A stretch of DNA of 64,000 nucleotides from an uncultured Candidatus Saccharibacteria bacterium (GCA_964638425.1 CAZWYM010000001.1:74441-138440); one strand, 5' to 3'; shown: positions 7,193 to 29,157, counted from the first letter of the stretch. The notes: generated by a model not told the origin, from the sequence alone. Numbers and translations: made by a program.

Positions 7193-7245
7193 ACTACCAA
7201 ATGGTTGCTCCGTGGATTCCCTTGAGGTACTGCTCGTAGCGAGCA
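7193..7245. repeat. direct repeat, the authentic 3' end of the 7194..7748 CDS; right boundary of the fic cassette
   Basis: Matches 5943..5996. Confidence 0.7.
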
Positions 7246-7993: not shown

Positions 7994-8563
7994 CTACTGA
8001 TACACGCACAAGCTATTGAATATAGGGTACAACACCTCAAATAACTGACCAAGGATGAGTCCCATAAACGATGCGTACAGAACTAGAATTATATACGAGT
8101 CCTTACCTTCATTTGCATTGCGAAATGATTGTAGAACTCCTACTTTATCAAACTCACGCTTTGCATTAGGATCACCAAAAAGTTCTCGATACAAACGCAC
8201 TCCGAAGGTAACACCAATGAAAATAATACTGATACCAATCAAACTTTGTAGAGAATCATCTGCAACTCTCTTGCTGATATCTAGCGCGCAATACGACTGA
8301 GCAATAAAGAGAATAAGGGATAATCCTGCTCCAATCACCATCAACGATCTGAACACTGCCAGAGCTGCTAGGGACCACGTAAACAAGGAAATGAACGCGA
8401 GTCCGATCAGAGAAAAGGTAAGAAAGATTGTGCTCACCTGCTTTTCCCAGTGAGCGAATGCAAATGAAGTTAGTATTACTGTGACTACGTATAGGACAAA
8501 CAGTACAGTAAATTTTCTGTCAGTCTTCATTCTGTGCAGTATGTATTTTATCTTCTTCAGCAT
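7994..8563 (-). CDS. 5-TM membrane protein; paralogue of 21695..22243
   Basis: Start codon is 2 nt after the KAP NTPase stop. Shares IAQSYCALD / MAQTYCDLQ and C-terminal SLCVYQ / GLCMY with the other paralogue. Confidence 0.5.
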   Translation of the reverse strand: MLKKIKYILHRMKTDRKFTVLFVLYVVTVILTSFAFAHWEKQVSTIFLTFSLIGLAFISLFTWSLAALAVFRSLMVIGAGLSLILFIAQSYCALDISKRVADDSLQSLIGISIIFIGVTFGVRLYRELFGDPNAKREFDKVGVLQSFRNANEGKDSYIILVLYASFMGLILGQLFEVLYPIFNSLCVYQ

Positions 8564-8565
8564 AA

Positions 8566-11500
8566 TTAAGATTCATTCTTCTCCGTCACATTATGAGATT
8601 CTACCTTTTCCCAATAACTTTTTTCAGTCGCACTAATCCTTCCATCAGGTTTTAGTTGCAATAGAAAATCAACAACTGATTTCTTCCCCCCGTTACTCCA
8701 CGAATCTAGGGCAGAAGCAACGTCTTCGTAGTCCTTCTGATATTGACTGAAGGACGGCTTCAACGTTAGTAAATTACTAAATGCCAAATCCAAAACTTCC
8801 TGAGAGTGACCATCTCTGATCATACAAAACAAGCTGAAAATATAATCCTTTTGCAGAGTCTCTTGTAACTCAGAGAAAAATCCAGTAACTACTTTAAGCG
8901 CAGAGGAATTTACTGTAGCTAAAACTTTACCTGGTTGTCTCAAAAATTCTAATGTTGACTTAACTATTTCTCTCTTCTTTTCTATGCTCAAAAAGTCTGC
9001 TTTTTCAAAGAAAAAATGCCCTACTTCGGATGTTTCAAGACTATCCTGGTTAAGTAATTCGATTACTTGCTTTGACACTAACTCCTTTATTGCAACATCA
9101 TTGTTTTTATTAATCTTGTCGGCAACAAAGTCATACATCTTCCTTCTACCCGCAATCCCAATAGTCGGAGCCTTGTTCAGTATTTTTTCAACTATTTCTG
9201 CCCTTGCATAATCTTTAGGCTTCAATGTAGCAATAAATTCTATCGCCTGAAGAGGATCTTGGGCAATTAGTACATCAAGTATTTGAAGTCTAGTTTCATC
9301 AGAAGAAAAATCATATATCACCTTAGTAAAATCTGGTTGTGACAAAACTCTTGGTTGAATGTTTGGTAAAAATTCGGTCACTAATGTTTGAGCATAAGTG
9401 ATTTTCCAAAACGTGAAGAACTCACGGACCGCAACCGCATTAGCATTTTGTAAAAACTGTACAAATAGTTGTTGCGCTTCGGTTTTCTGTGGATCAACAA
9501 GACTACTTCTTAGATAAATAAGTATAAGAGATAGGGTCTTACGCTTTTCCCATAAAGGAATCGCGTTGAAGGTTTGAACTATGTTTTTTATAAAATCAAC
9601 CTTATCTGCGGGCAAAAGTAATTTCAAATCTACTCTGAAAGTAACCAGCAAACCGAGAGCTTCCTTAAAGAATTGTTCTTTTTCTTCAGTAAAACCTGAA
9701 ACTGCTTGATTGTGTGCAATAGTAATTTCAGTAAGTTTTTTGAAGAGTTGAGGAAAGACTTTCTTCTCTATTACCATATCACTCAGGTCAGTCAACAAAG
9801 CTTTCTTTGTACCAAAGTTTTCTAGTGAAGCTGTTTCAACAATCCGTTCAATACTTTTTTTCGTAAGAAACTTGCTTTTATCATCGATTCCAACAAAAAG
9901 ATTCAAGATGTCGTCTCTTACGGAGTAATGTTCCTCAATAGCTTGTGCAATATTCAAAACATGTTCATTTGTTAGTAACTGCTTTTGCTTTACTAGGTTT
10001 TGCAAAATGCTCTTAACAATTGCTATTTCGTTAAAATTTTTAAACTCTTCGGTTGCAGAAAGTGCCAGAACATAACGGTCAAGAATATTCTTTCTAATAC
10101 GAGAATCAAGATTGGGATCCGCAACTACAAAATCAAAAATCACATCAGTTGGCAACTTCTGAAAAGAAGGCCAAACTTTACCATCAAGTAAGCCCGCGAC
10201 AGTATTTATATAATCTCTACTAGTCAGATTTAGCTCACCAAGAACAGTTAACTGAGTTTTAAAAATGGTTGTAACTACATCAATTCCGTGATTTTTATAC
10301 TTGTTGAGGATTGAAATAATGAACTCAAGCAAAGTTGCCTTGTCTGTTTCTGCCTCTATATGAGTTTTTGCCGTAGTTTCATTTCCTTCTATGAGAGAAA
10401 GCCTGATGGACTCATCATCTGTAAGAAGGTCGGAGATAACAGGTTTCTTTAGGTATATAAATGGTTCAGCATCCTCAACAGTGATTCGACTGGTCTCAAG
10501 CATGAAATTCTCAAACTCCTCACGAAAAGGCGGTTCTTCTGCAACCACTACTTTCCTATACGTACCAAGTATCTCTTCAGGTGCATACCAAGATTTTTTC
10601 AAGTTTTGAAATGCCTCGGGGTACTTATGCATTAGCACAAGTACTTTTGCCATATATGCAATATTATTAGAAACAATATCCTTAACCTCAGTATTGAAGG
10701 CAACAAGAACTGCAGAAATTAAATTGTTAATAAATTGTTTTATCTCTCGAGGATTGTTAGAAAATGCAGACTCTATAACCAAGTACACATCATCATTTTC
10801 TAAATAATTTTTAATGTCTCCTGTTTGTTTGATCTGTTCTTTCACGAAAGTACGAATGTCGGTATCAATATATTCCGGAGTCCAAACAACAACATTGAAT
10901 ATCTTTCTTAAAAACTCGTCGGCTAACTCAGCGCTAGGAGCTGCCTTTTTAATTGCTTCAAAATCACATGGGACGAGAAAAACAACATTCTTACCTTTTG
11001 CGTCCACGTCTTTAATTTCAAGAAACGTTTTTAGAGTCGACAGGACTTCCGTAGCAACTTTAGAGTCAACACGGTCAAGATTGTCTATAACAACCACAAC
11101 TCTATTGGTCTTAATTTTTGATAACTTTAAAATCCGTACAAAAGATTTCTCAAATTGTTCGGGAGAACTTAACTGTGATTTTGAGGAAGTTATCGGAGAA
11201 ACCATAATAATCTTTTTGAAGTCCTCCCCAAGTACTTTCTCTATAATTAAAGCAATTGAAAGTGCCAACGAAAAACTTGTTCCGGCCCAAAGTTTCCATT
11301 GTGTGGCAAGATCAGGGAAGACTTGCCACGTAAACAGACCAATTATTATTAGGAACGGCAGCGACAAAATTGCCACCTTCTTCAAATAACCCCAGGAGAT
11401 GGATACCTTTTCGCCTACAGTTTCGCTCAGAGAAAAATAAAGTTCCTTCTCAAGCTTATCAATTTCATTTTTATTTACTTGCAAATCCTTTGCTATCTGC

Positions 11501-11781
11501 AGGAGCAACTGTCTTCTTAAAGAATCTTTTTCGTATTTCCAAGCATCAAATTCAACTATTGTTCCTCCCTCAATACCCTCATCTTTGAGTAACTTAACGA
11601 TTGTACTTTTTCCTGTACCCCATCGACCAAAGAGACCGATGGTATGAACACACGTGTCGCTTTCTAAAATAGATTTAAGTGCCGGTGCAACGCTCTTGTG
11701 GTAGAAATCAAAAAAGTTTTTAGACTCCTTACCAACAGGAGCATCCTTTAAAAAATTAAACTGTTTTGATTTGTTATCCAT
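8566..11781 (-). CDS. KAP family P-loop NTPase
   Basis: Walker A GRWGTGKST. Two TM helices inserted within the NTPase domain (LPFLIIIGLFTWQVF.../SFSLALSIALII), which is the hallmark of KAP NTPases. Walker B/DdLDR-like VVVIDNLDR. Long helical C-terminal region. 15 nt downstream of hsdR. Confidence 0.8.
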   Translation of the reverse strand: MDNKSKQFNFLKDAPVGKESKNFFDFYHKSVAPALKSILESDTCVHTIGLFGRWGTGKSTIVKLLKDEGIEGGTIVEFDAWKYEKDSLRRQLLLQIAKDLQVNKNEIDKLEKELYFSLSETVGEKVSISWGYLKKVAILSLPFLIIIGLFTWQVFPDLATQWKLWAGTSFSLALSIALIIEKVLGEDFKKIIMVSPITSSKSQLSSPEQFEKSFVRILKLSKIKTNRVVVVIDNLDRVDSKVATEVLSTLKTFLEIKDVDAKGKNVVFLVPCDFEAIKKAAPSAELADEFLRKIFNVVVWTPEYIDTDIRTFVKEQIKQTGDIKNYLENDDVYLVIESAFSNNPREIKQFINNLISAVLVAFNTEVKDIVSNNIAYMAKVLVLMHKYPEAFQNLKKSWYAPEEILGTYRKVVVAEEPPFREEFENFMLETSRITVEDAEPFIYLKKPVISDLLTDDESIRLSLIEGNETTAKTHIEAETDKATLLEFIISILNKYKNHGIDVVTTIFKTQLTVLGELNLTSRDYINTVAGLLDGKVWPSFQKLPTDVIFDFVVADPNLDSRIRKNILDRYVLALSATEEFKNFNEIAIVKSILQNLVKQKQLLTNEHVLNIAQAIEEHYSVRDDILNLFVGIDDKSKFLTKKSIERIVETASLENFGTKKALLTDLSDMVIEKKVFPQLFKKLTEITIAHNQAVSGFTEEKEQFFKEALGLLVTFRVDLKLLLPADKVDFIKNIVQTFNAIPLWEKRKTLSLILIYLRSSLVDPQKTEAQQLFVQFLQNANAVAVREFFTFWKITYAQTLVTEFLPNIQPRVLSQPDFTKVIYDFSSDETRLQILDVLIAQDPLQAIEFIATLKPKDYARAEIVEKILNKAPTIGIAGRRKMYDFVADKINKNNDVAIKELVSKQVIELLNQDSLETSEVGHFFFEKADFLSIEKKREIVKSTLEFLRQPGKVLATVNSSALKVVTGFFSELQETLQKDYIFSLFCMIRDGHSQEVLDLAFSNLLTLKPSFSQYQKDYEDVASALDSWSNGGKKSVVDFLLQLKPDGRISATEKSYWEKVESHNVTEKNES

Positions 11782-11796
11782 AATTAAATTTCGAAC

Positions 11797-14700
11797 TCAG
11801 ATATTTACCGTATACACGCTAGTCTTATTATCAACATAACTGTCGTAAACATGCGAATAGACCTTCTGAGTTTTATCTTCACAGTCTTCTTCTGTATAGG
11901 TAGGCTCAGGCAAGTTGTCATACAAAAGAGCGCGGATAGTGACCTTAACATCAGCACGAGTCTCTTCCTTTTTCTTCCAGTCGAGCGCAAGTTTCTCCAT
12001 ACGAAGCTTTATTACCAACTCCTTCGCAACCACTTTCACTTGATTTACTTCGTCTGGATTGAGGTTCTCTTTTTTGAGCAAGTCAAAAATAGCCAGCTCT
12101 TCCTCAGATAGGTTCTCTGCAATTGCACGACTATCTTCCTCGCTTAGATCCTTAGCGAGCTCTACGAGCTGGTCAAAGAACGACTCAAGATCATGCGAAC
12201 CAGCGTTGTATTCATGCAACAGTCGATTGAGGCGATCAAGGAATGCCTTGCGTAGCTTATTCTTTCGAACCATCTCTTTTATCTTCTCTTCCAATTCAGC
12301 ACTTAATTCCTCAGCTTCAATATTCTTCGTGTCTGAGTCATCAAAAAACTTCTTGAGTGCTTCAAAGTCTATCTTGCTTAGGTCTTTTAGGTTTGGTTTA
12401 TCTTTAATGACGTACTCACCGGCACGGATAGAACGGTCGAGCAGATCCTCAAGATCCTTCTTAACCTGAGACACGTCAGTCTCCTCGTCGATAACTTCAC
12501 GGATACGGGAAGCAATAACCTTATACGCAGTCACCTCGTGGTAGAAGTCTTCTGCCTTTGGTTCTGGGAGAACAGCTTTGTAGTATTTGAGTGCATCACC
12601 TGAAAGTTCGAGGTAGCGTTGCTTAGTTTGTTCATCGACAAGGATGCGGTTGGTAAATACGTCGACGAGACGGATCTTTTCAATATCCTTTGCTTCGAGT
12701 AAATCATTGATATTGAGGTCGAGCAACTTGAGGAATTGTCGAGTCTGAGAAACACTTGCAAAGAGGATTTCTACTAGCTCATCCTTATCTTTAATAATCT
12801 CGTCATCACCATCATTCGAGACAGCATAAATAGCGAGTGCTTTCTGGAGGTTTCGGAACACACCAATGTAGTCAACGATAAGACCGTTAGTCTTTCCCGG
12901 ATACACACGGTTTGCACGAGCGATAGTCTGCATGAGCGTATGGTTCTTGAGTGGCTTATCAAGATAGAGCGTTGAAAGGTTTGGCACGTCAAAACCAGTC
13001 ATCCACATAGCACATACGAAGACAATCTTGAGGTTATCGGTAGGCTCTTTGAATTTAGTTTCCAAGTCCTCGTCAATCATACGAGCACGGATCGGACGCA
13101 TATCGATGTCAAACTCCTTCATGTCATCAATTTCGTTCTGGCTTTGACTGACCACTACCGCCATATCAATGTCCTCGTATTTAGATATCTGCTCACGAAT
13201 AGACTCCTTTTCGTGTTCGTCTTTTGCTTTTGAGACAGCAATATTAAGCTTTGCAATGTACCGTTGCATTTGTTCTTTTACCTTCACGTACATGCGAATA
13301 GCTGTCTTCTTATCAATAGACACGACCATCGCTTTACCGTTGTATCCCCGTGAGGTAAAGTGCGTCACAATATCTTCCGCAACCTTATTGAGACGATCTT
13401 CACGAGAGATGAGGTGGTAGAAAGTTGAAAACTCCTGCTCAAGTTTATCCTCCTCATCAGAGGTAAGGTCGTAGTAATCCATTACCTTCTCAATATCCTT
13501 CTGGATATCAGTATTAGTATTCTGAAGTTTTGGAACACGGTTCTCATAGAAGAGCGGTACTGTCGCACCGTCCTCTACAGACTGTGCAAAATTGTATGTT
13601 GAAACATAGTCTCCAAAGGTTGAGCGGGTCTTTTCTTCACCATCCATAATTGGCGTACCAGTAAAGCCAATGAATGAAGCGTTCGGAAGTGCAATACGAA
13701 GGTTTTTTGCAAAAGTATCGTATTGGGTACGATGCGCTTCGTCAGCCATTACAATAATGTCATTTCGTAGATTGAGTTCAATGGGTTCGTTGAACTTCTG
13801 AATCAAAGTGAAGATATGGCGATGATCCTCAGCAAGTAGTTCTCGGAGATTTTGAACAGAATCTGCATGCACTTCTTTATCTTTCTCAGCTCCACAGTCA
13901 ACAAAGTTCTTGTATATCTGTTTATCAAGCTCACGACGGTCAGTAATCAGCACAAAAGTGAAGTTACCATGCATCTTTCTGAATACCTTCTGCGACAAGA
14001 AGAGCATTGAGTATGATTTTCCTGATCCTTGTGTGTGCCAGAACACCCCAAGACGACCTCCATTTTCTTCACGATGTTCAATACGCTGAAAAGCTTTATT
14101 GACCCCGAGGAACTGGAAGTATCGAGCAACAATTTTGGTGAGTTCGCCACGAGAGCCATCAAATAATGTGAAGTTCTCAACAATATCTAAAAGTCGTGAC
14201 GGCTCACACGTACCACGAAGTACAATGTCGAGACTTACGCCACCCTCTTCACTCTCGTCATTAATCTTCTTCCATTCATTAAAGTGCTCATAGGCAGAAG
14301 TAAGGGTACCCACCTTACTCTCAATACCATTTGAAATAATGATAAATGCGTTACACCAAAAAAGCTGAGGAATGGTGTCCTTATAGTCACGAATATTTTC
14401 TTGGTAGGCATTGCGGAGATTCTTGTGCGAAGCTTTCAATTCAATGAGCACTAACGGCAACCCATTTACAAAACCTATAAGATCAGGGCGACGCTTGTGG
14501 AGTTCGCCAGTGATCCACATTTGAGATACGAGAAGGTAGTCGTTTTTTGAGACATCATTAAAATCAACAACTTTGATATTGATGGTCTCTATCGCTCCAC
14601 GATCGTCACGGACCTCAACTTTGACACCATCTTTTATGAGTTTATAGATATCAGCATTCGCATTTACCAAACTCATTGATGAACGGTCACGAGTAAGCTC

Positions 14701-14922
14701 ATCAATAGCTTGAATAATGGCTTCTATTGGAGCATCAGGGTTAAGTCTCTCGAGAGAGGGCTTTAGGTACTTCGCCAAAATAACCTGCCCTTGATTATCA
14801 CGACCTAGGAGTGCGTCACCCTCATCAGAGTATCCATTAATAAAATTTTTAACACCCCAAAGTTCGCCAAAGATTTTGACAGCTGTTTGCTCTATGAGGT
14901 TGTCTTCTGAAAATTCGTTCAT
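11797..14922 (-). CDS. hsdR: type I restriction enzyme R subunit (HsdR)
   Basis: SF2 helicase motifs WHTQGSGKS and DEAHR; size 1041 aa; overlaps hsdS by 4 nt. Confidence 0.9.
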   Translation of the reverse strand: MNEFSEDNLIEQTAVKIFGELWGVKNFINGYSDEGDALLGRDNQGQVILAKYLKPSLERLNPDAPIEAIIQAIDELTRDRSSMSLVNANADIYKLIKDGVKVEVRDDRGAIETINIKVVDFNDVSKNDYLLVSQMWITGELHKRRPDLIGFVNGLPLVLIELKASHKNLRNAYQENIRDYKDTIPQLFWCNAFIIISNGIESKVGTLTSAYEHFNEWKKINDESEEGGVSLDIVLRGTCEPSRLLDIVENFTLFDGSRGELTKIVARYFQFLGVNKAFQRIEHREENGGRLGVFWHTQGSGKSYSMLFLSQKVFRKMHGNFTFVLITDRRELDKQIYKNFVDCGAEKDKEVHADSVQNLRELLAEDHRHIFTLIQKFNEPIELNLRNDIIVMADEAHRTQYDTFAKNLRIALPNASFIGFTGTPIMDGEEKTRSTFGDYVSTYNFAQSVEDGATVPLFYENRVPKLQNTNTDIQKDIEKVMDYYDLTSDEEDKLEQEFSTFYHLISREDRLNKVAEDIVTHFTSRGYNGKAMVVSIDKKTAIRMYVKVKEQMQRYIAKLNIAVSKAKDEHEKESIREQISKYEDIDMAVVVSQSQNEIDDMKEFDIDMRPIRARMIDEDLETKFKEPTDNLKIVFVCAMWMTGFDVPNLSTLYLDKPLKNHTLMQTIARANRVYPGKTNGLIVDYIGVFRNLQKALAIYAVSNDGDDEIIKDKDELVEILFASVSQTRQFLKLLDLNINDLLEAKDIEKIRLVDVFTNRILVDEQTKQRYLELSGDALKYYKAVLPEPKAEDFYHEVTAYKVIASRIREVIDEETDVSQVKKDLEDLLDRSIRAGEYVIKDKPNLKDLSKIDFEALKKFFDDSDTKNIEAEELSAELEEKIKEMVRKNKLRKAFLDRLNRLLHEYNAGSHDLESFFDQLVELAKDLSEEDSRAIAENLSEEELAIFDLLKKENLNPDEVNQVKVVAKELVIKLRMEKLALDWKKKEETRADVKVTIRALLYDNLPEPTYTEEDCEDKTQKVYSHVYDSYVDNKTSVYTVNI

Positions 14923-16100
14923 GATTTTATTTCTAATTTACCGGTGACCAACTGTGGAAGAATCAAGTCACGTGACTTGATCAGTATTTCGTTCTGTTTC
15001 TCAAGTTTATACTTTAAAACAATACATTCTCGCACCTCTCTACCAAATTTATCTGTAACTTCAACTGGCGGAACATTCAATTTCTTTGTCATAAATTCAG
15101 GCCAGTGTCCTTTGTAGTCGTTGAATGAGATTAAGTTTTTTGTTGCAAAATGCAACCAAAATACATTCCTATCATCTAATGGGAGAAAAGGTAAAACATT
15201 TTGTATTGCAGAAAATGCAAACATTATTAAATTTTGATAACAAGTATGATTCGCAAATACAATTATTGGATCGTCTGTCGAAGCTACAACACTCGGCTCA
15301 TCATTATGATAGCCAATTATCCCTGACCTACCTTGATCTAAAACTGGCACTTTACCTGTAGGTTTAACAGTTTTATTTTCGTATCTCCTGCCAGCTGAGA
15401 CTCTTTTAATCACATCTTCTACTCTCTTTACTTCCCAGCCATCAGGAAGACCATCATTCCCAAATCTTATTTTTTCAGACCCAGGAAAACGAAAATTTAC
15501 AAACCATTCAGTATAAATTTTTTGAGCTAGTGTCTCAAGAATGTAGATGCGACGTTTGTTGTTTTCAATTAAATCATCAAAAAGGGACAAAGTTGAAGCA
15601 ATTGCTTTTTGAGTCTTCAATGGAAGATAATCAACATTGAGATTTTCTAGTTCACTCCCTCTGATTCCAGCTGCAGCTACCTGCATCACCAGTGATTGGG
15701 TTTTAGCTTTTCCTCTAGGAGATGAAAAGTAATAGTAGAAGAAATCAGGGTTTGCAATATCTTTTTTTAATCGCACTCTTATAAGGTGCGACTCGAAGGT
15801 TGTCTGACGTGTTGTCCCTTTAAAAATTGAACATTTACCAGCGCCTTCTGCCACTAATGACTGTCTTGCAAAAAGTAGATCGCCATCCATAAGTAGACTG
15901 TTCGCTTGCTCCTTTAACGTTAACGGGGCAAGCTCCATCCCAATAGAATCGTATATCTTGTCATACTTAAAAATCTCACCCATATTCACCATAGGAAAAC
16001 CTGAGCCTCTTACTCTCTTCGGCTTACTCACGCCATTACGAGAGGGGATTTCGTAAAGATCACCGAATCGTATTTCTTTTGTTTCTTGATTGATCTGCAT
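14919..16100 (-). CDS. hsdS: type I RM specificity subunit (HsdS), two target-recognition domains
   Basis: Position between hsdM and hsdR; two-TRD architecture with conserved central and C-terminal helices. Confidence 0.8.
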   Translation of the reverse strand: MQINQETKEIRFGDLYEIPSRNGVSKPKRVRGSGFPMVNMGEIFKYDKIYDSIGMELAPLTLKEQANSLLMDGDLLFARQSLVAEGAGKCSIFKGTTRQTTFESHLIRVRLKKDIANPDFFYYYFSSPRGKAKTQSLVMQVAAAGIRGSELENLNVDYLPLKTQKAIASTLSLFDDLIENNKRRIYILETLAQKIYTEWFVNFRFPGSEKIRFGNDGLPDGWEVKRVEDVIKRVSAGRRYENKTVKPTGKVPVLDQGRSGIIGYHNDEPSVVASTDDPIIVFANHTCYQNLIMFAFSAIQNVLPFLPLDDRNVFWLHFATKNLISFNDYKGHWPEFMTKKLNVPPVEVTDKFGREVRECIVLKYKLEKQNEILIKSRDLILPQLVTGKLEIKS

Positions 16101-16104
16101 ATTA

Positions 16105-17640
16105 CTATTCTAATCCCAAGAGATTTCGAAAATTATTCAAAATACTCTTTTCAAGAGAACGTGCCTCAACAGTAAGTTTTTCAAACTCGGTGTAAAGCTC
16201 TCTTGCAGACGTTTCAAAATCCTCATCTGAAATATCCGATTCGACAGTTCCTACATATCGACCTGGATTTAGAGAGTAACCAGTATCGGCTACTTCTTGG
16301 ATTGTAACGACCTTACAAAACCCCTTTACGTCTTCATATTTAGCTAAAGTTTGCTCGCCACGATACCTTCGTACAACGTCAGTAATCTGCTGTATTTGTT
16401 CATCAGTCCATTCACGATGTGAACGATCGACTTGGGTGAAGGTATTTCGTGCATCAATGAAAAGAATTTTGTCTTTACGCTCAAGATACCTCTTACCTTT
16501 GTCGAGAAACCAGAGAGTTACAGGAAGAGTAACGTTATAAAACATGTTTGGACCAACAGAGACCATCACATCAACAACATTGTCATCAACAAGCTTCTTA
16601 CGAATTTCTTTTTCACTATTTCCAGCATCACTGGCAGAGTTTGCCATAACAAAACCTGCACGACCTCCATCTTTGAGAGCGTTCAGGAATATTTGTATCC
16701 AGAGATAGTTACCGTTATCTGTACGTGGGAGACCGTATGAAAATCGGGGATCATCTTTGATACGTTCTTTATCAATACCATCTACATTGAATGGTGGATT
16801 TGCCATTGCAAAATCAAACTTTCCGACAGAGCGGTGTAGATCTTCGTAGTAAGTGTTTCCCTGACGTATATCTCCAGAAAGACCATGAATAGCGAGGTTC
16901 ATCTTAGCAATACGAACTGTCTGATCAGTCTTTTCTTGCCCATAAATAGAAATCTCTCGTGAGGCTTTTTCTTTTTTTCCATTTTCAAGATGACGCTTAA
17001 TGAACTCAAGGGACTGCACAAACATACCTCCTGAACCACAAGCAGGATCGTATATCTTTCCTTGATAGGGTTCAAGAATTTCTACGATCAACTTTACAAT
17101 CGATGTCGGAGTAAAGAACTCTCCACCACCCGAACCGTCTGACAGCGCGAACTTGCCGAGAAAGTATTCGTAAATAAGACCGAATGCATCGCCTTCAATT
17201 GTGTCGGGGATATGATTTAGATTTTTGAGAAGCGTAACAATTGCAGAATTGTCGAGCAGGTTGTAATTTTTCGGAAGAATGCCTGCGAGGTCTTTGTTTG
17301 ATGTTTCAATTTCCTTCATTGCATCATTAACTGCCTTTCCCATATCCGTTCCTTCTGGAAGTGCAATGAGATACGAAAAACGAGCGTGCTCAGGAACGAA
17401 AAGCACAGCTCGTGATTGATAGTCCTCAGGAGTGATAGGTCTCTGACGTTTAGAAGTAGACGTCTTTGTCTCAGCTTCAATTTCTTTCTGTGCAACAGTG
17501 AATTTTACGTCAGCGAACTTGAGAAAAATAAGACCTAGAACTGGCTCAGCAAACTCGTTGAGACGCAAAGAAGAGTTGGCTCGAAGATGATCTGCCGCCT
17601 CCCATAGTTTACTCTCAAGTTGTTTGATGTCTGATGCCAT
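16105..17640 (-). CDS. hsdM: type I RM N6-adenine DNA methyltransferase (HsdM)
   Basis: HsdM N-terminal domain, SAM motif, and catalytic NPPF (ANPPFNVDG). Confidence 0.9.
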   Translation of the reverse strand: MASDIKQLESKLWEAADHLRANSSLRLNEFAEPVLGLIFLKFADVKFTVAQKEIEAETKTSTSKRQRPITPEDYQSRAVLFVPEHARFSYLIALPEGTDMGKAVNDAMKEIETSNKDLAGILPKNYNLLDNSAIVTLLKNLNHIPDTIEGDAFGLIYEYFLGKFALSDGSGGGEFFTPTSIVKLIVEILEPYQGKIYDPACGSGGMFVQSLEFIKRHLENGKKEKASREISIYGQEKTDQTVRIAKMNLAIHGLSGDIRQGNTYYEDLHRSVGKFDFAMANPPFNVDGIDKERIKDDPRFSYGLPRTDNGNYLWIQIFLNALKDGGRAGFVMANSASDAGNSEKEIRKKLVDDNVVDVMVSVGPNMFYNVTLPVTLWFLDKGKRYLERKDKILFIDARNTFTQVDRSHREWTDEQIQQITDVVRRYRGEQTLAKYEDVKGFCKVVTIQEVADTGYSLNPGRYVGTVESDISDEDFETSARELYTEFEKLTVEARSLEKSILNNFRNLLGLE

Positions 17641-17645
17641 AAATG

Positions 17646-17849
17646 TTAAATACTCTTATCCAAAAATTTAATGATGTCTTCCTTGCGGTAACGTCGGTCT
17701 TTGCGAGTACCGAAGCGTAGCGCCTTAAGAATTCCTTTGTTGTCCCACTTGCGAAGCGTGTTCGGATGGCAATTTAGAACATCACATGCCTGCTGTAATG
17801 TCAGGATATCCGGTAACTCCAAAAGCTTCTTTTCGTGTTTCGTTGGCAT
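17646..17849 (-). CDS. excisionase/MerR-like HTH DNA-binding protein upstream of hsdM
   Basis: LTLQQACDVLNCHPNTLRKWDNKGILKALRFGTRKDRRY is an HTH_17-like sequence. Confidence 0.55.
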   Translation of the reverse strand: MPTKHEKKLLELPDILTLQQACDVLNCHPNTLRKWDNKGILKALRFGTRKDRRYRKEDIIKFLDKSI

Positions 17850-17902
17850 AATGCTAACTTAACACAAGTTTACATCACATTTTAAGAAAGATAAACTCGC
17901 AT

Positions 17903-18502
17903 TTAAGCTGTATTTTCAACGATTGCCTTTGCGAGATCGTTAAATTCAAAGGGTTTTATAGCGTGCTTTTCTAGACGAGCCAGAGAGATACTGTTGCCAT
18001 TCTTCGATAGCTCCTTAAGGTGGTCTCTTGAAAGAACATAGAAACACCACTGACTAAGGTCGACGATATCGAGAGTGACATGGTCTTGGTGCTTAAACAG
18101 TGCAAGAACATATACATCAGATTTGTAGTCAGCAACCCTGCTAAGCTCTGATTGCTTCTTAACAGCGTCTGAGTAATACAGTTCTGTTGCCTTAAGCCCA
18201 GACCAGAGAATCTTTGTAAATTGATTTTGATCCCAGTCTTGAATATATGAGCAACACTTCACCTCAATCTTTGTATTCTGATACAAAACATCGTAGTCTC
18301 CCCAAGGACTACGAACATCGATCTCTTTATTCTGTTTGAGTGCGTTCTCGACTAGAAATTCTGCGAGTGCACCTCGAAGTACATTTGAGTTAAGGCTGGA
18401 AAAGCCGTACTGCCAGAACTCTAATACGTTGAAAGATTTTTGTCCTGAGTTTTTAAATGTCTCAGAGCCCGAAAGTTTTTTCACTGGAAGTTTTTTATAC
18501 AT
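17903..18502 (-). CDS. hypothetical protein with a putative PD-(D/E)xK nuclease-like motif
   Basis: GDYDV...EVK spacing resembles a restriction-endonuclease-fold core. Lies upstream of the RM operon. Confidence 0.35.
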   Translation of the reverse strand: MYKKLPVKKLSGSETFKNSGQKSFNVLEFWQYGFSSLNSNVLRGALAEFLVENALKQNKEIDVRSPWGDYDVLYQNTKIEVKCCSYIQDWDQNQFTKILWSGLKATELYYSDAVKKQSELSRVADYKSDVYVLALFKHQDHVTLDIVDLSQWCFYVLSRDHLKELSKNGNSISLARLEKHAIKPFEFNDLAKAIVENTA

Positions 18503-18544
18503 GGGAGAAATTAAAATACCAGCATTTTATAATGAAAACCCTCC

Positions 18545-18967
18545 CTACATTACCTTTTCAAGTATCGTGAAGAGGCCTTGGGAGGTGAACTTTGCCCAGC
18601 TGTTTGGCTTGAGGTCTTTGGTCAGAATTATCGTTCCTTTTGCAGTAATGCGTTCTCCGTCTCTGAAGTCTGCCATGCTTCCTGCACCTGCTCCGAAATT
18701 AACCGCGTAGTATTCACCCTCATCGGTATGAATGCCAAACGCGCAGTCCGCTGTGACGGTACCCCCTGCAACAGGTGGTAGACATACGTACGTTCCCGAA
18801 AGTGTTACCGTCTCTGCCTTCTGTGTTACGTTCTCACCTTTTGTCTCTACACGTTCCTCGCTAGGTGTACCTCCGTTTGGAGTCGAAGTACTCCCCTGCC
18901 TCAGACTGCTATACCCCACAAATAAAACAACGAGTACCACCGCACCGATGAGTATGTTTCGATTCAT
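18545..18967 (-). CDS. hypothetical secreted protein
   Basis: N-terminal signal/TM segment; Gly/Thr-rich. Confidence 0.4.
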   Translation of the reverse strand: MNRNILIGAVVLVVLFVGYSSLRQGSTSTPNGGTPSEERVETKGENVTQKAETVTLSGTYVCLPPVAGGTVTADCAFGIHTDEGEYYAVNFGAGAGSMADFRDGERITAKGTIILTKDLKPNSWAKFTSQGLFTILEKVM

Positions 18968-18984
18968 ATAAAAAGTATATCAGA

Positions 18985-19022
18985 AACCCCAACGCGAAGC
19001 GCTAGCTTCGCGTTGGGGTTTC
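18985..19022. terminator. perfect palindromic hairpin (aaaccccaacgcgaagc gctagc ttcgcgttggggttt)
   Basis: Seen directly; between two minus-strand genes. Confidence 0.45.
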
Positions 19023-19041
19023 TCCACGTTGGTCAAACTTA

Positions 19042-19082
19042 AAAAATAATCCCGAAGGTCGCCATGGCGACCTTCGGGATTA
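19042..19082 (-). terminator. rho-independent terminator of the DUF1653 gene
   Basis: Hairpin aatcccgaaggtcgcc atg gcgaccttcgggatt followed by a T-run on the minus strand. Confidence 0.6.
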
Positions 19083-19092
19083 TGGGCGTATC

Positions 19093-19446
19093 CTACGGAT
19101 ACATTTCGTTTCTGATTTTGGTCAGCACCTGTGTGACGGCTGGGTCGGTGACTTTCGTGAAGCGTGGAAACTTTCTTCCATCCTTCTCTACATCACCCAT
19201 CCACATCTCAAGCGGACGGTTATCGAAACACGGAACACCAAGTTCTTTTGAAGCCTTGTACACAGAAGCTTCATACAAAGGACGGTACACAATGAAATGT
19301 GCTTCACCGGGGCGAGGGTCGTCTTCGGTGTGGAAACCGACACCTATCACCTCATAGGCATAATTGTTTACCAATCTGTTTGGGTCGTGCTTGTAGTGGT
19401 AGTAGAAGCCAGGTTCAGGCACTCGTTGTGGCATGGGTAATGACAT
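19093..19446 (-). CDS. DUF1653 family protein
   Basis: GFYYHYKHDPNR...YEVIGVGFHTE pattern. Confidence 0.5.
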   Translation of the reverse strand: MSLPMPQRVPEPGFYYHYKHDPNRLVNNYAYEVIGVGFHTEDDPRPGEAHFIVYRPLYEASVYKASKELGVPCFDNRPLEMWMGDVEKDGRKFPRFTKVTDPAVTQVLTKIRNEMYP

Positions 19447-19556
19447 ATATTTCTCCTGTTTGGGTTGCTCTGGGACAAGACTAACCTAATTACATTCCTT
19501 TGAAAAGTTCAGTGGCTTTAGCCCACAGGGTTACCCTGTGAGTGACACGATTGATG

Positions 19557-20150
19557 TTATTTCTGGAATGTCTTGTACTTTTCAATAAGCTCCTTATATC
19601 CAATTTCTTTAACTAACTCAATTGCCCGGGCGTACCCTGGTGGTAAATTGTCCCGACCGAAGTCTAGCGGCTCTTTATCAAACAGTCTTTGATACATTTC
19701 ATACAGCATGGCATACAGAAGTATATGGTTCCTAGATACTGGTTCTTCACCTGCATATTGCGTTTGTGCATAATCCCAATACTGTTGATTATCTGTGACT
19801 AGAAAAATATGCAGTAATTCATGAATGATTAAATCCAGAAATTTTTCGTCAGACCATTGTTTATTCTCCTTATTCCACATCGGAAGAAGAAACGGAGTAG
19901 ACATCGCTTGTAGTCCTGCTCCAAAAACGAAACACTCCAAGTTACGCTCGGGGACTTTCCCTGTTAGATCAGCAAGGTTAGCAATTATATGTTTCGATGA
20001 GTCCGCTTCGCTCCAGATTCCTTCCCAGTACTTGAGAGTAGACTTAACTTCTTCCATAGATGGATACTCAAGACCCTTCTCTAAAAATAATGCTCTCCGT
20101 CCACGATCAAGAGGGTACGCGTAAATGAATGATAATTTTGGTAAATCCAT
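19557..20150 (-). CDS. hypothetical protein with HExxH (HELLH) putative zinc-metallopeptidase motif
   Basis: IIHELLHIF motif is the only diagnostic feature. Confidence 0.35.
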   Translation of the reverse strand: MDLPKLSFIYAYPLDRGRRALFLEKGLEYPSMEEVKSTLKYWEGIWSEADSSKHIIANLADLTGKVPERNLECFVFGAGLQAMSTPFLLPMWNKENKQWSDEKFLDLIIHELLHIFLVTDNQQYWDYAQTQYAGEEPVSRNHILLYAMLYEMYQRLFDKEPLDFGRDNLPPGYARAIELVKEIGYKELIEKYKTFQK

Positions 20151-20157
20151 ATAATCA

Positions 20158-20583
20158 CTATGCTTTCGGATTAAATTCTACAATCCACTCAATACCGTAT
20201 TTGTCTCTGAACATTGCGAAGGCTTCTCCTTCAGCGCTGTCATCCATCGGTACTTCTACTTCTGCACCAACAGAAAGCCCTTTGAATATCCTTCCCGCTT
20301 CTTCTCTACTCTCAGCATCTACAAAGATTTTACTTCTGTTTTCGCTTTCACTTACCTTCCCCATGAATGAGGGTACGTCATTTCCGACGAGCATTGTGCC
20401 GTTCCCTATGGAGAGTACGATGCGCATGATTTTGTTTGCGTCTTCATCTCCGACTGGGAATTCAGGAGTTGCAATATCTTTGAAACGGGTCACCTTCGAA
20501 AACTCACCACCAAACACTGACTGATAAAAAGTAAACGCCTCTTCTGCGTTGCCATTAAAATTAATCCACGGGTTTATTGTCAT
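20158..20583 (-). CDS. VOC/glyoxalase-like (PhnB-like) family protein
   Basis: MTINPWINFNGNAEEAFTFYQSVFGG... is a typical PhnB/VOC N-terminus. The track ORF extends to 20661; the Met at ~20583 is preferred. Confidence 0.6.
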   Translation of the reverse strand: MTINPWINFNGNAEEAFTFYQSVFGGEFSKVTRFKDIATPEFPVGDEDANKIMRIVLSIGNGTMLVGNDVPSFMGKVSESENRSKIFVDAESREEAGRIFKGLSVGAEVEVPMDDSAEGEAFAMFRDKYGIEWIVEFNPKA

Positions 20584-20763
20584 ACGTGTAAGTATACAAT
20601 ATTTAGGATAGTGTAACCTTCCCAGATGTATTGGACGATGCCGGAAAACTTCTCTATCCAACTTCCACAGAAAAACCTCCGACAGCCATTTTGCTCATAT
20701 CAAACGGCATTGGCATGTCTACATTGGCGTATTTTTCATTGAAAAATTCCATTACTTTTTTAT

Positions 20764-21045
20764 TTACTTGGTTTCTCTGGGTTTTATTTTATAGGTAATG
20801 AAAGAAAACCAGATAGTATCACTTGCTTTTGCTCCGGTCAGTTTGGTAAACGAGAGTGGTGCTGGCATACCATGCGACGCTTTCTTTGAAAGCTCTTCTC
20901 CTATACATTCTTTATAATCTAAAGCTCCAAAACGCTTCCACACCTCCTCCGCCTCACGAGCCATCTTCTTGTACTTGGCGATGTTCTTTTTAGGAATAAC
21001 GAGTACAAACCCATCTACATATGTTGCAGTTTGCTTTTTTGTCAT
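20764..21045 (-). CDS. DUF1428 family protein
   Basis: ATYVDGFVLVIPKKNIAKYKKMA...FGALDYKEC matches the DUF1428 pattern. The upstream extension to 21141 is probably not translated. Confidence 0.55.
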   Translation of the reverse strand: MTKKQTATYVDGFVLVIPKKNIAKYKKMAREAEEVWKRFGALDYKECIGEELSKKASHGMPAPLSFTKLTGAKASDTIWFSFITYKIKPRETK

Positions 21046-21694
21046 ATCCTTAAATGATAGCAGATCTGTGTTTAAAAGTGAGTTGCGTTTCTCCAGAGCG
21101 CTGCCAGACTTGGAATCTCTCTCATTACATGAGCAGTACACCTTGTCGATATTTTGTTTCCTTACATCACAAAATATCTGGCAAGGTCTTCGAGGTCAGG
21201 GACTCGTCCCGCTTTTTCTAGTTCACTTCGTTCACAAGAACGCTGGACGCGGCTCGCTGTTTCGTCGCAAGCTCCTCATATCGCTCCGCCGTTCGAGTCC
21301 CTGACTGGCTAGCAACGACAAAGGCCACAGACGTATTCACGTTTGTGGCCTGTCGATTGCTGCCAGTCAGGGACTCGAAGCTTACAGCTTCAGTTCAGGT
21401 TGTATGATATTTTCTTTCAGAAAATCTCGACAACCTCCTTAAAAGTCTCCCAGACTTTTAAGCCCCAATAAAATGCGAATGAGGCGTGTCCTAGAGCCGA
21501 ATGAGTGAGTGTGAAAGAAAATGTGTTGAGTTTCCACAGAGCGCTGGCCGTCTCGGGCTAGAACCGTAGGTGACCAAGCCCAGCTTGACGGAATCAGCTC
21601 ATTTTACACTACCTTACCGACGCGTCTCGTGCATCTCAAAAAGTGACAAAAGTGACACGGAACAGCCTGTAATAGTTACAGTCATCTGTAACTA

Positions 21695-22243
21695 TTAGTA
21701 CATACAAAGACCCGAAATAATTGGCGTTAGTACTCTATAAATACAAATAAGGTAGAACAAAACAAAGAGAATATATGCAATTATGGTCAATCTGCTTTCC
21801 CATGATGAGCCACCTTTCTCAAACCGCTTCCTATGCTCTTTGTATGCCTCCTGAAATTTTGTAATGAAATCGTAGGAGATAAAGACGAGTCCTGTACCCC
21901 ACAAGAACGTGAGGGCTTGGAGTCCTTCAGGTGTTTGGCTTTGGAGATCACAATATGTCTGTGCCATAAAAATGAGCACACCAAATCCAACGCTTGCATG
22001 TAGTAAGGCTTTGTATACTGCATAGCCAGATACAAGCATGATGACAGTGAGGACAAATCCAATGGAAGAAACAGCGACAATAGAAAGACCAGAAAGAAGT
22101 TGGTGATTGAAGTAGTTGTTGTCAGCAAATATCAGAGCAGTAAAAAGAACCGCAAAGATGAGCGGTACTAATTTCTCCTTATTAAACCCAAGTTTCATAA
22201 GTCCAACTATACGCCCACAATACGAGTCTGCAACTATACCCAT
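21695..22243 (-). CDS. 5-TM membrane protein; paralogue of 7994..8563; last gene of the LexA-TIR-caspase operon
   Basis: Overlaps the upstream gene by 10 nt; shares conserved blocks with 7994..8563. Confidence 0.5.
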   Translation of the reverse strand: MGIVADSYCGRIVGLMKLGFNKEKLVPLIFAVLFTALIFADNNYFNHQLLSGLSIVAVSSIGFVLTVIMLVSGYAVYKALLHASVGFGVLIFMAQTYCDLQSQTPEGLQALTFLWGTGLVFISYDFITKFQEAYKEHRKRFEKGGSSWESRLTIIAYILFVLFYLICIYRVLTPIISGLCMY

Positions 22244-22932
22244 TCTTCGGCCCGAGCATATTCAATCCTTGTTTTTGCGCCATCGAGTATCTTGTCATCG
22301 AGGGAGACTAGCGGTGGTTTCCCTCTCGCTGAGTACTCCAAGGTCTTGAATAGGTACCCCAGAAACGATCCTGTGTATCTACAGCACCGAATGCAACATC
22401 GTATTTTGTCGGGCACCTCGTCCTCATATCCTTTCCAACGATACATTTGTGGGTAACGATCTATCCAGTCGTCAGTAATGAATGTCACCCACTTTATAAG
22501 TTCCTCTTGAGCGCAGACGTTACCCCTTTGACCCAATCGCACCAAACGAATCACCATGCGATCTTGAATGTGTTTGTCGCGGTCATCTGCTGGCGAAAGA
22601 AAAACATACAATTTCTCTTTATATCTCTCAAGGATCAAGTCAACTTCTGTCTGACGTCGGTACGGTCGTGCCTGTTTATATCGATAGCGAATCCATCTTT
22701 TTTGATACTCACGGGAAATGTGACGAGTTAAAGAGTCCCAATCAATACTATTGTTTTCGTTACGTAAGTTCTGTCGTGCATATTGGTACACAGGTTTTGC
22801 ATGTATAAAAATCCACGAGCTAGTGAGTGCCGGTGGTTGCTTCTCGTCAAGAGCCTGATTAAGTAATGCAATAGCGGTACAAAAATCCATAAGTGCCCAT
22901 TTGGGACACTTATATTTTACCTTCTGAAACAA
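22234..22932 (-). CDS. hypothetical protein with CCxRCC cysteine cluster
   Basis: 232-aa ORF overlapping the caspase-like gene by 23 nt; contains DKIRCCIRCCRYTG; no recognised fold. Confidence 0.45.
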   Translation of the reverse strand: MFQKVKYKCPKWALMDFCTAIALLNQALDEKQPPALTSSWIFIHAKPVYQYARQNLRNENNSIDWDSLTRHISREYQKRWIRYRYKQARPYRRQTEVDLILERYKEKLYVFLSPADDRDKHIQDRMVIRLVRLGQRGNVCAQEELIKWVTFITDDWIDRYPQMYRWKGYEDEVPDKIRCCIRCCRYTGSFLGYLFKTLEYSARGKPPLVSLDDKILDGAKTRIEYARAEEWV

Positions 22933-24491: not shown

Positions 24492-24496
24492 AATAT

Positions 24497-25114: not shown

Positions 25115-25174
25115 GGTATAAATAGTATAACAAATGCTATACAATCCAGCAAACAGTGCTAAAATTAGGATACT

Positions 25175-25843: not shown

Positions 25844-25872
25844 GTGGACATCAAGGTGAGTGGATAATACAG

Positions 25873-25905
25873 AAAACAGCCTTTTAAAATAAGGCTGTTT
25901 TCATT
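25873..25905 (+). terminator. rho-independent terminator
   Basis: aaaacagcctt ttaaaataa ggctgtttt followed by a T-run. Confidence 0.6.
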
Positions 25906-25931
25906 TATCGACTCCATCTGGTGTCTATTAC

Positions 25932-29152: not shown

Positions 29153-29157
29153 CGTGG

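Follow-up and report, generated by a model that had tools for sequence, protein, structure and literature searches.

Two small membrane proteins, A and B, encoded in the window (the 64,000-nucleotide stretch of DNA analyzed here), belong to an undescribed, apparently Patescibacteria-centred family of 5-TM proteins of ~170-190 aa, designated C0, whose genes stand at the operon end of at least 13 different defence architectures. A portable membrane add-on to immunity is the likelier role for C0; a dedicated partnership with the KAP NTPase or the caspase, encoded in the operons of A and B, respectively, is less likely. To our knowledge, almost nothing about immunity in Patescibacteria has been tested experimentally. 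These bacteria (CPR) have tiny genomes, yet their density of defence genes is high (PMC12259885). C0 can serve as a genomic flag for new defence cargo in CPR genomes and offers a simple candidate for a new anti-phage function at the membrane. Its loci also document small integrative islands, with methyltransferase, TerS/TerL-like and serine recombinase genes, that shuttle defence systems.

Homology and topology of the two membrane proteins

The initial annotation took A and B to be paralogous 5-TM proteins on the basis of a few shared sequence blocks. Both open reading frames are present on the minus strand (Table 1), and the blocks are real: IAQSYCALDIS in A corresponds to MAQTYCDLQSQ in B, a basic loop follows TM4 in both, and SLCVYQ corresponds to GLCMY. 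BLASTP aligns the two proteins with E=2e-10 (25% identity over 124 aa), and the profiles of their subfamilies match each other with an hhalign probability of 99.06% (E=1.6e-18, 177 columns). The Smith-Waterman score of the pair is 131, compared to 41.7 ± 8.6 (z=10.4) for 2000 shuffles made within 10-residue blocks with the TM pattern kept. Because none of the 2000 shuffles reaches the observed score, the likeness extends well beyond hydrophobic composition, and A and B are, as judged from these alignments, true homologues and paralogues of one family. The kinship proposed initially is thus borne out. Neither of the outcomes named initially as refuting was seen: the similarity is significant, and in other loci relatives are associated with defence genes, those for NTPases and proteases among them.

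Five hydrophobic segments are present in each protein, consistent with a predicted 5-TM, N-in/C-out topology. The positive-inside rule is satisfied, with 14 of 17 K+R in A and 10 of 10 in B located in the predicted inside loops. Each protein has two Cys on the predicted outer face.

Table 1. Features of the A and B operons and of the adjacent mobile backbone in the window.
Feature	Position	Strand	Remarks
Membrane protein A, 189 aa	7994-8563	-	Long-loop ('A-like') C0 clade
KAP-family P-loop NTPase, 1071 aa	8566-11781	-	Variable cargo; next gene upstream of A
Type I restriction-modification head of A operon	11797-17849	-	HTH_17 to hsdR
hsdR	11797-14922	-	
hsdS	14919-16100	-	
hsdM	16105-17640	-	
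HTH_17 regulator	17646-17849	-	
Conserved non-coding DNA element	21542-21694	-	Immediately 3' of B
Membrane protein B	21695-22243	-	Short-loop ('B-like') C0 clade; probable true start 22198 (167 aa)
C9, very basic protein, 217-232 aa	22234-22932	-	Probable start 22890
Caspase-like C14 peptidase	22910-23857	-	
Short TIR protein	23859-24230	-	
DUF2188	24252-24548	-	With S24, conserved head of B operon
LexA/cI-like S24 repressor	24497-25144	-	Conserved head of B operon
Divergent mobile backbone	25175-31826	+	
222-aa HTH protein	Within 25175-31826	+	Mobile backbone
N6/N4 methyltransferase	25932-27269	+	Mobile backbone
TerS-like HTH	27247-27669	+	Mobile backbone
Terminase-large-subunit homologue	27662-29152	+	Mobile backbone
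SNase-like gene and LOOT RNA	29158-30314	-	In mobile backbone
Large serine recombinase	30354-31826	+	Mobile backbone

Extent and conservation of the C0 family

C0 comprises ~181 clusters at 50% identity, and its members with names come from Patescibacteria. Pfam, NCBIfam, PADLOC, PHROGs and the PDB contain no match to it. A profile search of PDB sequences returned 0 matches at E<=10, A and B hit no PHROGs family at E<=0.1 and 0 PADLOC families, and A, B and 55 divergent members matched no Pfam family, with just scattered single sub-threshold matches. No C0 sequence was found by tblastn in 50,697 phage records. The profiles of Cap15_CD_rec/S-2TM-beta, S-4TM, SLATT, 8xMP, KwaA and ZorA/B gave no significant match to A or B; searches with such membrane-effector models work when the target is present, as Cap15 was detected in locus L008 and 8xMP in L031. 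The combined alignments of A and B diverged too much to be used in locus scans; the separate genome and metagenome scans gave only four loci each.

Among 128 divergent members, the two cysteines are nearly invariant (C92 in 128 of 128, C186 in 127 of 128). They are part of a conserved site composed of A-Q-S/T-Y-C at the outer end of TM3 and P-I-x3-L-C-x-Y in the C-terminal tail, and the conserved residues face outward according to the predicted topology. No position of the cytoplasmic TM4-TM5 loop is conserved at >=60% in the same set; in the long-loop clade, a cytoplasmic loop of 30 aa is well conserved.

An AgrB-type peptidase was considered and rejected. The hhalign probability of the family profile against a manually entered S. 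aureus AgrB sequence is 0.13%; a match to AgrB was seen in just 1 of 57 members, and C0 has no conserved His. Two fusion proteins, P0126 and P0154, carry cytoplasmic domains of 400 and 270 aa, respectively, N-terminal to C0, for which no match was found in Pfam, PADLOC, PHROGs or the PDB. A Rosetta-stone link of these domains to free upstream genes was rejected, there being no similarity. The RSAYLH motif of P0126 is possibly HEPN-like, by reading of the sequence only.

Gene neighbourhoods of C0

Recognizable defence genes lie upstream of C0 on the same strand in 15 of the 20 architectures examined. C0 closes, or nearly closes, operons that begin with a regulator and have an interchangeable anti-phage middle part. 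In one group of loci it follows type I R-M with KAP (A in the window), with C13 and a Dsr1-C-like protein (L001/L014), or with Shedu and YgjP (L007). Elsewhere it follows PDC-S11-like (L015), Hsp70-like/AAA/Mrr (L004) and Gabija-like (L019) genes, and CBASS genes in the form of CD-NTase with HORMA (L009) or with Cap15 (L008/L011). Further architectures are TIR with caspase (B in the window), TIR with E2 (L006), ThsB with ThsA_Macro (Thoeris II, L021), TIR with E2/E1 and JAB (L024), and E1/E2 with JAB (L017). Unannotated genes beside C0 include those for C9, C13 and proteins of 745 and 584 aa.

Six genes make up the A operon, in the order HTH-hsdM-hsdS-hsdR-KAP-A, and the gaps between them are 5, 4, -4, 15 and 2 nt. 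The initial annotation, which described it as a KAP NTPase operon, was right in placing the KAP gene directly before A and fell short of the actual unit. The protein encoded upstream of A has both the KAP_NTPase domain (PF07693, 96 bits compared to a cutoff of 20, residues 36-354) and, within the P-loop fold, one hydrophobic insert (residues 131-156); its likeness to QatA/PifA is confined to the N-terminus. The R-M genes of the window are 79-84% identical in nucleotide sequence to those of L001/L014, and the KAP position in L001 is occupied by genes unrelated to KAP.

In the B operon, the caspase domain scores above its cutoff (79.7 bits). The adjacent TIR is below the Pfam cutoff (20.4 compared to 21.2) and gives weak ThsB matches in PADLOC. 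Type IV Thoeris consists of TIR and a caspase-like effector, and the two genes in the window are predicted to be a type IV Thoeris-like cargo pair. The likeliest start of B is M16 (22198), 35 nt past the upstream stop, because most homologues begin there and a GTATAGTT motif, conserved ahead of the B-type start ATG in 4 loci, precedes that ATG. With this start, B would be co-transcribed with the upstream genes without overlap. The translational coupling proposed initially for both genes therefore holds for A, at the TAA-TT-ATG junction with its 2-nt spacer, and probably not for B.

No canonical intrinsic terminator was reported after A or B in an intrinsic-terminator scan. Their position at operon ends is indicated by gene-free stretches of 245 and 550 nt with short hairpins in the sequence and, for B, also by the conserved 3' DNA element. 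This element contains an invariant TGTAAC...GTGTCACTTTTGTCACTTT and marks the operon or island end in 8 loci. Its interpretation as a structured RNA found no support, as 0 of 24 predicted pairs covary, and a relaxed Rfam search gave spurious miRNA matches only.

Cargo exchange between conserved flanks

Comparison of loci by blastn revealed mosaics, with conserved flanks and non-homologous cargo, among L006/L008/L009/L019/L021/window and among window/L001/L013/L014/L015. L006 and L021 share 85% identity across the 4.76 kb that lead up to the repressor, their cargo is unrelated, and their C0 genes are 74% identical. Between L006 and L009, the backbone is 67% identical and C9+C0 81%. Likewise, hsdM/hsdR and A of the window are homologous to those of L001, and the KAP slot is not. 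One flank is formed by the regulator, the other by (C9+)C0 and the 3' DNA element. The operon-terminal pattern of C0 also reflects cargo swapping between conserved island flanks. Such swapping on mobile islands was absent from the reasoning of the initial annotation.

The defence cargo recognized comprises type I R-M, KAP/QatA-like, Shedu, Gabija-like, Thoeris, CBASS, E1/E2/JAB, Dsr1-C-like and PDC-S11 genes. Of the features of a defence-cargo hotspot, conserved flanks and recognizable defence cargo were found; a constant C0 flank was not.

Proposed function of C0 and alternatives

Our preferred reading, held tentatively and at somewhat less than even confidence, is that C0 is a membrane module that is portable, stands at operon ends and works at the envelope independently of its partners, and not the dedicated effector of the KAP NTPase or the caspase. 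Defence cargo is exchanged between conserved flanks, with C0 at the operon 3' end, and the activity of C0 would be independent of which cytoplasmic system precedes it. The conserved Cys pair at the outer end of TM3 and in the C-terminal tail, predicted to lie on the extracytoplasmic face, leads us to propose action at the envelope, where C0 may provide an extra co-expressed protective layer, conceivably as a superinfection-exclusion-like block of entry or as a small membrane gate. An autonomous exclusion protein of this kind would add a new family. Most of the partner systems are known to be complete without a membrane protein, including type I R-M, Gabija, CBASS with Cap15, Thoeris II with ThsA-Macro, and TIR with caspase as in type IV Thoeris.

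A shared effector or anchor, onto which the upstream protein docks or which it activates, with C0 permeabilizing the membrane or localizing the complex, is rather unlikely; if it served many systems, this would amount to a new principle. The stop-2nt-start coupling is conserved with the KAP NTPase, the Dsr1-C-like protein and a 198-aa protein, the N-terminal cytoplasmic domains of P0126 and P0154 fit the N-in topology, and the cytoplasmic loop is conserved within the long-loop clade. In addition, the TIR+E2/E1+JAB+C0 locus L024 has no other effector candidate, and L031 has a Pfam 8xMP membrane protein in the C0 slot (a literature search on 8xMP gave no usable result). However, some of the systems ahead of C0 do without any membrane effector (type I R-M, Gabija) and others already have their own (Cap15, ThsA-Macro), and C0 matches no TM effector model known from Pfam or PADLOC. 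The upstream partners have no common domain, BLASTP found no similarity shared among them, including any C-terminal docking domain, and none matches the fused N-domains. Modular reuse, which the initial annotation had deduced from two cassettes, extends to many more unrelated ones; the effector or anchor role attached to it is not supported: most partners are self-sufficient, they are unrelated to each other, the conserved residues face outward, the cytoplasmic loop is variable across the superfamily, distant members lie near xseAB or alone, and related elements often lack C0.

These distant members, P0190 directly after xseA-xseB and P0210 alone, are among the observations suggesting that C0 may be a hitch-hiking housekeeping or envelope protein, kept as a homology arm or boundary for cargo exchange. 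We regard this as unlikely. It would account for the position of A, where variable cargo meets flanking genes whose synteny is shared by the window and L001, for L013, where the same host genes (P-type ATPase, PAP2) precede another cargo that also ends in A, and for homology between elements stopping 40-150 nt past C0. On the other hand, defence genes lie immediately upstream in those 15 of 20 architectures, C0 travels with its cargo to unrelated genomic sites with different flanks, it is tightly coupled to the preceding gene, and two paralogues occur within one 14-kb stretch. Even as a hitch-hiker, C0 would remain a useful island marker.

Quite improbable, in our estimate, is a universal membrane hub or executioner of Patescibacteria on which restriction, KAP, Gabija, TIR/caspase and CBASS all converge; one small 5-TM protein would then carry out the final step shared by all of these systems in such ultra-small cells.

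Many C0 loci are located on small islands with methyltransferase, TerS/TerL-like and serine recombinase genes, and one C0 region is catalogued as viral in IMG/VR, as might be expected of a mobile-element backbone gene for packaging, lysis or transfer. We give this reading very little credence. C0 is absent from 21 related TerL-bearing loci (L036-L056) fetched via the TerL-like gene and from the S24-led operons L031 and L035, found through the 3' motif. It is present in L024 and L028 with no mobile backbone nearby, and the phage records mentioned above lack it. C0 is therefore optional in the TerL/serine-recombinase island family, and an obligatory backbone gene was rejected.

It is equally doubtful that C9 and C0 form a sigma/anti-sigma-like pair, in which a soluble nucleic-acid or polymerase binder held by its membrane partner would report membrane or defence status to transcription: C9 is very basic, always directly precedes a B-type C0 when present (four different cargo contexts) and is far more conserved (72-84% identity, compared to ~48% for C0), but it has no family or PDB match, its single-sequence AF2 model has a pLDDT of 33, and many C0 genes, all A-type ones included, lack it. 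A sigma-like C9 found no support in the family and structure searches.

Comparison with known systems

The superinfection-exclusion proteins P22 SieA, T4 Imm and HK97 gp15 are small, self-acting inner-membrane proteins from lysogeny or immunity regions. C0 would resemble them by analogy only, in position, size and outward-facing conservation, with no homology. In the lambda cI-rexA-rexB immunity operon, RexB is a small multi-pass membrane protein with 4 TM. B-type operons are similarly arranged, with an S24/cI-like repressor first, defence genes next and a small polytopic membrane protein last. In contrast to RexB, C0 has 5 TM and no PHROGs or Pfam relationship to it, and the middle genes of C0 loci are interchangeable complete systems, not one fixed sensor. 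In A-type loci, HTH and type I R-M take the place of the repressor. The lysogeny-type arrangement, in which a repressor-led operon on an integrative element ends in C0 and the 3' element, next to a divergent MTase-TerS-TerL-recombinase backbone, applies to B-type loci and not to A-type loci.

Like the TM effectors of CBASS, Thoeris and Pycsar (Cap15/S-2TM-beta, SLATT, 8xMP), C0 is a small membrane protein at the operon end. Unlike them, it matches none of these families and has no conserved cytoplasmic ligand-binding part, and in L008/L011 it co-occurs with Cap15.

B is also comparable to EACC1 in being a small membrane protein genetically linked to a caspase-like protease. EACC1, which is membrane-active, is a cleavage-activated protein of ~13 kDa (5.7 + 7.1 kDa fragments) encoded 5' of the caspase (PMC7159879; bioRxiv 10.1101/2025.11.14.688446), built around one conserved, Gly-rich TM helix with alpha+beta extensions (PMC7159879). 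The window caspase reaches 110.6 bits with the NCBIfam model 'caspase_w_EACC1', below the cutoff of 140. B, in contrast, is 5-TM and lies 3' of the caspase with C9 in between, A has no caspase neighbour, and C0 occurs mostly with non-protease systems. The identification of A or B as EACC1 was rejected based on their length (189 and 167-182 aa), five TM segments and wrong gene order.

C0 islands resemble the P2/P4-type defence hotspots of prophages and satellites (bioRxiv 10.1101/2021.01.21.427644) in having variable cargo, conserved flanks and a recombinase. They differ in their carrier, a Patescibacteria island that has a methyltransferase and a serine recombinase besides its TerS/TerL-like pair, and in that one flank is a membrane protein translationally coupled to the preceding cargo, which is also found free of the backbone in L024.

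Two membrane proteins of one family

The membrane proteins A and B had been proposed in the initial annotation to be paralogs with five transmembrane (TM) segments. Their homology is confirmed by BLASTP (E = 2e-10) and by an end-to-end match of the two subfamily profiles, which hhalign aligns over 177 columns with a probability of 99.06% and E = 1.6e-18. The Smith-Waterman score of 131 lies 10.4 SD above shuffles confined to 10-residue blocks, by which the TM pattern is preserved. The relatives of A (36 clusters at 90% identity) and those of B (34 clusters) form separate sets, referred to here as the A-like and B-like clades of a family, C0. Hydropathy and the positive-inside rule likewise support five TM segments, with the N-terminus inside and the C-terminus outside.

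The sequence blocks quoted for the two proteins prove to be the signature of the family, as judged from 128 superfamily members, mostly representatives of 50%-identity clusters. The cysteine of A-Q-S/T-Y-C is kept in all 128 and that of L-C-x-Y in 127, both being on the predicted outer face; Y91, F120 and P180 are conserved at 90-97%, whereas conservation stays below 60% at every position of the cytoplasmic TM4-TM5 loop. An exhaustive profile search yielded 181 C0 clusters at 50% identity, 165 of them at E<=1e-10, with named sources in Patescibacteria, Nomurabacteria and Paceibacterota MAGs. Nearly all members have 165-210 aa. Two clusters, P0126 (575 aa) and P0154 (430 aa), are N-terminal fusions in which cytoplasmic domains of 400 and 270 aa, respectively, with no known family precede the C0 module. 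An RSAYLH motif in P0126 is, by eye only, reminiscent of the HEPN Rx4H motif.

Searches of Pfam, NCBIfam, PADLOC and PHROGs with A, B and 55 divergent relatives gave no matching model, and the C0 profile matched no PDB sequence. The AF2 model is all-helical, of modest confidence, and gave no specific structural neighbor. On testing, C0 does not belong to the EACC1, Cap15, SLATT, 8xMP, AgrB or any PHROG family. It does not occur in any of 50,697 phage records.

Operons of A and B

The A operon is one tightly packed unit on the minus strand, with intergenic gaps of 5, 4, -4, 15 and 2 nt in order from the HTH_17 gene to A. It had been read as a KAP NTPase operon; KAP does lie upstream of A, but as the fifth gene of what is really a type I restriction-modification (R-M) operon. 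A 184-aa protein without family match, encoded downstream of A and kept in the comparison loci L001-L003 (69% nt identity), probably belongs to the syntenic flank and not to the cassette.

Divergent from the S24 repressor gene of the B operon, the plus strand carries genes for a 222-aa HTH protein, an N6/N4 methyltransferase (MTase), a TerS/AlpA-like HTH protein and, further on, a terminase-large-subunit (TerL) homolog and a large serine recombinase. The TerL homolog matches 484 phage records, 36 of which cover at least 80% of the query. Between its gene and that of the recombinase, and so within the island, a full-length LOOT RNA (RF03000, 94.8 bits) lies directly upstream of an SNase-like gene. 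A group I intron match (RF00028, 72.1 bits) is located near the tRNA gene cluster at 54.3-56.4 kb.

The start of B needs to be corrected; it is most likely 22198, because most homologs begin there and GTATAGTT is conserved ahead of that ATG in four loci; 35 nt would thus separate B from C9, with no overlap. C9 is strongly basic, matches no family and always stands just before a B-type C0. It is strikingly conserved, with 72-84% identity between loci in which the neighboring C0 is only ~48% identical to that of the window and the cargo is unrelated.

Coordinates of features in the window and in comparison loci
Feature	Locus	Position	Strand	Unit
HTH_17 regulator	window	17646-17849	-	A operon
hsdM	window	16105-17640	-	A operon
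hsdS	window	14919-16100	-	A operon
hsdR	window	11797-14922	-	A operon
KAP-family NTPase, 1071 aa	window	8566-11781	-	A operon
Membrane protein A	window	7994-8563	-	A operon
LexA/cI-like S24 repressor	window	24497-25144	-	B operon
DUF2188	window	24252-24548	-	B operon
Short TIR protein	window	23859-24230	-	B operon
Caspase-like C14 peptidase	window	22910-23857	-	B operon
C9, basic, 232 aa	window	22234-22932	-	B operon
Membrane protein B	window	21695-22243	-	B operon
C9	L006	9305-9961		
C9	L009	9284-9937		
C9	L019	9306-9959		
Gene-free stretch	window	21142-21694		
Hairpin	window	21294-21377		
SNase-like gene	window	29158-30192	-	
LOOT RNA	window	30197-30314	-	
Serine recombinase	window	30354-31826	+	backbone
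P-type ATPase + PAP2	window	31862-34289	-	
P-type ATPase + PAP2	L013	3653-6108		
Group I intron match	window	57611-57805	-	
184-aa protein	window	7194-7748	-	
Fic-domain gene	window	6016-7086	-	
Fic-domain gene	L017	17678-18733		
Fic-domain gene	L024	11634-12200		
A-type element	L001	10595-10753		
A-type element	L013	11014-11172		
A-type element	L014	13484-13658		
A-type element	L015	10595-10751		
P0126	L017	10001-11728		
P0154	L023	1478-2770		
S24-led operon with 8xMP	L031	2532-4510		

Gene neighborhoods and exchange of cargo

Twenty distinct C0 gene architectures were recovered, annotated by precomputed Pfam matches, further domain searches and our own ORF clustering. Recognizable defense genes lie directly upstream on the same strand in 15 of the 20, in agreement with the earlier proposal that the module is reused behind distinct defense systems. 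The upstream proteins, when compared with one another, have no detectable similarity, and the TAA-nn-ATG junction is kept although the upstream protein differs (KAP, a 1013-aa or a 198-aa protein). Three unrelated loci have a Fic-domain gene a few kb or less from C0; these genes may be part of the islands, or their proximity a coincidence.

Gene architectures around C0
Clade	Locus	Genes
A-like	window	type I R-M + KAP
A-like	L001/L003/L014	type I R-M + C13 (unannotated) + Dsr1-C-terminal-like 1013-aa protein
A-like	L015	PDC-S11-like nuclease + 242 aa + same 1013-aa protein as L001; adjoins MTase/TerS/TerL backbone
A-like	L007	MerR::hsdM-Shedu-hsdS-444-hsdR-YgjP
A-like	L004	Hsp70-like/AAA/Mrr_cat set; three more genes after C0
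A-like	L013	FAD_binding_4 + 745 aa + 3-TM protein
A-like	L016	short contig: 139 aa + C0 + 235 aa + 442 aa; upstream gene unannotated
B-like	window	after TIR + caspase + C9
B-like	L006	after TIR + E2 + C9
B-like	L009/L012	after CD-NTase + HORMA + 2-TM protein + C9
B-like	L008/L011	after CD-NTase + Cap15
B-like	L019	after Gabija-like OLD-family ATPase + UvrD-like helicase + C9
B-like	L021	after ThsB + ThsA_Macro
Distant	L024	after TIR + E2/E1 + JAB; no mobile backbone nearby
Distant	L017	fused member inside S24-led E1/E2-JAB operon
Distant	L028	after xseA-xseB
Distant	L026, L023	neighbors uninformative

Nucleotide comparisons show conserved flanks with unrelated cargo between them. L006 and L021 are 85% identical in a 4.76-kb stretch extending across the repressor and DUF2188 genes, without a match in the cargo, and 74% identical in C0; L006 and L009 share 67% identity in the backbone and 81% in C9 and C0. 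The window matches L001 at 84% over HTH-hsdM, 79% over hsdR, not at all in the KAP slot and 81% over A, the last match stopping exactly at the stop codon of A.

Directly 3' of C0, B-type loci carry one copy of a ~150-nt non-coding element with an invariant TGTAAC...GTGTCACTTTTGTCACTTT. No covariation was found in this element, which is therefore read as a DNA site and not an RNA. In L011 and L017 additional genes lie between C0 and the element, so that the element, not C0, is the true end. In the window it occupies the first ~150 nt of the 550-nt gene-free stretch behind B. Further parts of this stretch are conserved with L019, and an 84-nt near-perfect hairpin within it matches miRNA models only. 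A-type loci have a separate ~160-nt non-coding element, ~87-91% identical and containing two copies of GAGACCGAGACGG; its distance downstream of A varies, and it is absent from the window.

Host genes for a P-type ATPase and a PAP2 protein border the 23-kb stretch of the window that holds both cassettes. In L013 the same pair (76% nt identity) directly precedes a different 3.9-kb cargo whose last gene is an A-type C0, pointing to a common island site.

Possible role of C0 and its relation to the mobile carrier

The data show that C0 recurs at the ends of operons, that the cargo of these operons is swapped, and that an invariant Cys pair lies on the predicted outer face. We tentatively favor a putative partner-independent function at the envelope, where C0 may act as a co-expressed, exclusion-like barrier or as a small gate. 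Partner-independence is suggested because C0 follows mechanistically unrelated systems that are complete by themselves, such as TIR and caspase (as in the two-gene type IV Thoeris), because it occurs together with Cap15, because no cytoplasmic part is conserved across the family, and because distant members stand outside defense contexts.

The initial annotation had proposed a shared effector or anchor of the upstream systems. The translational coupling of C0, the P0126 and P0154 fusions and the effector-less L024 cassette favor this role, as does a substitution in L031 (same contig as L037), in which S24, a TIR 91% identical to that of the window, a ThsB-type TIR and a Pfam 8xMP membrane protein are followed by the 3' motif. 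Here 8xMP stands where C0 is expected, so a different membrane family fills the slot. We regard a shared effector or anchor as a serious alternative, though a less probable one than an envelope function. By another explanation, which we regard as somewhat less probable still, C0 would be a non-defense hitch-hiker or a homology arm.

Independently of C0, sequences related to the TerL-like gene were collected, as were loci with the 3' motif. The module is absent from the 21 closest TerL-bearing loci, whose cargo consists of type I R-M, MmeI-like, OLD-family and TIR genes, and from two S24-led operons ending in the 3' motif, of which that of L031 is one. C0 is an optional, portable module and not part of the carrier; that it is a backbone gene of the mobile element is essentially excluded.

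In architecture, the B-type loci are similar to lambda cI-rexA-rexB and to prophage and satellite defense hotspots. The searched literature held no description of the C0 family or its arrangement. The arrangement resembles a defense-island hotspot that ends in a recurrent membrane module. The IMG/VR loci L036-L056 make up a family of small islands that encode an MTase, TerS-like and TerL-like proteins and a serine recombinase. Their defense cargo (type I R-M, an MmeI-like enzyme, OLD-family ATPases, TIR) often occupies the interval from the TerL-like gene to the recombinase gene, and the islands have the appearance of satellite-like carriers of defense genes.
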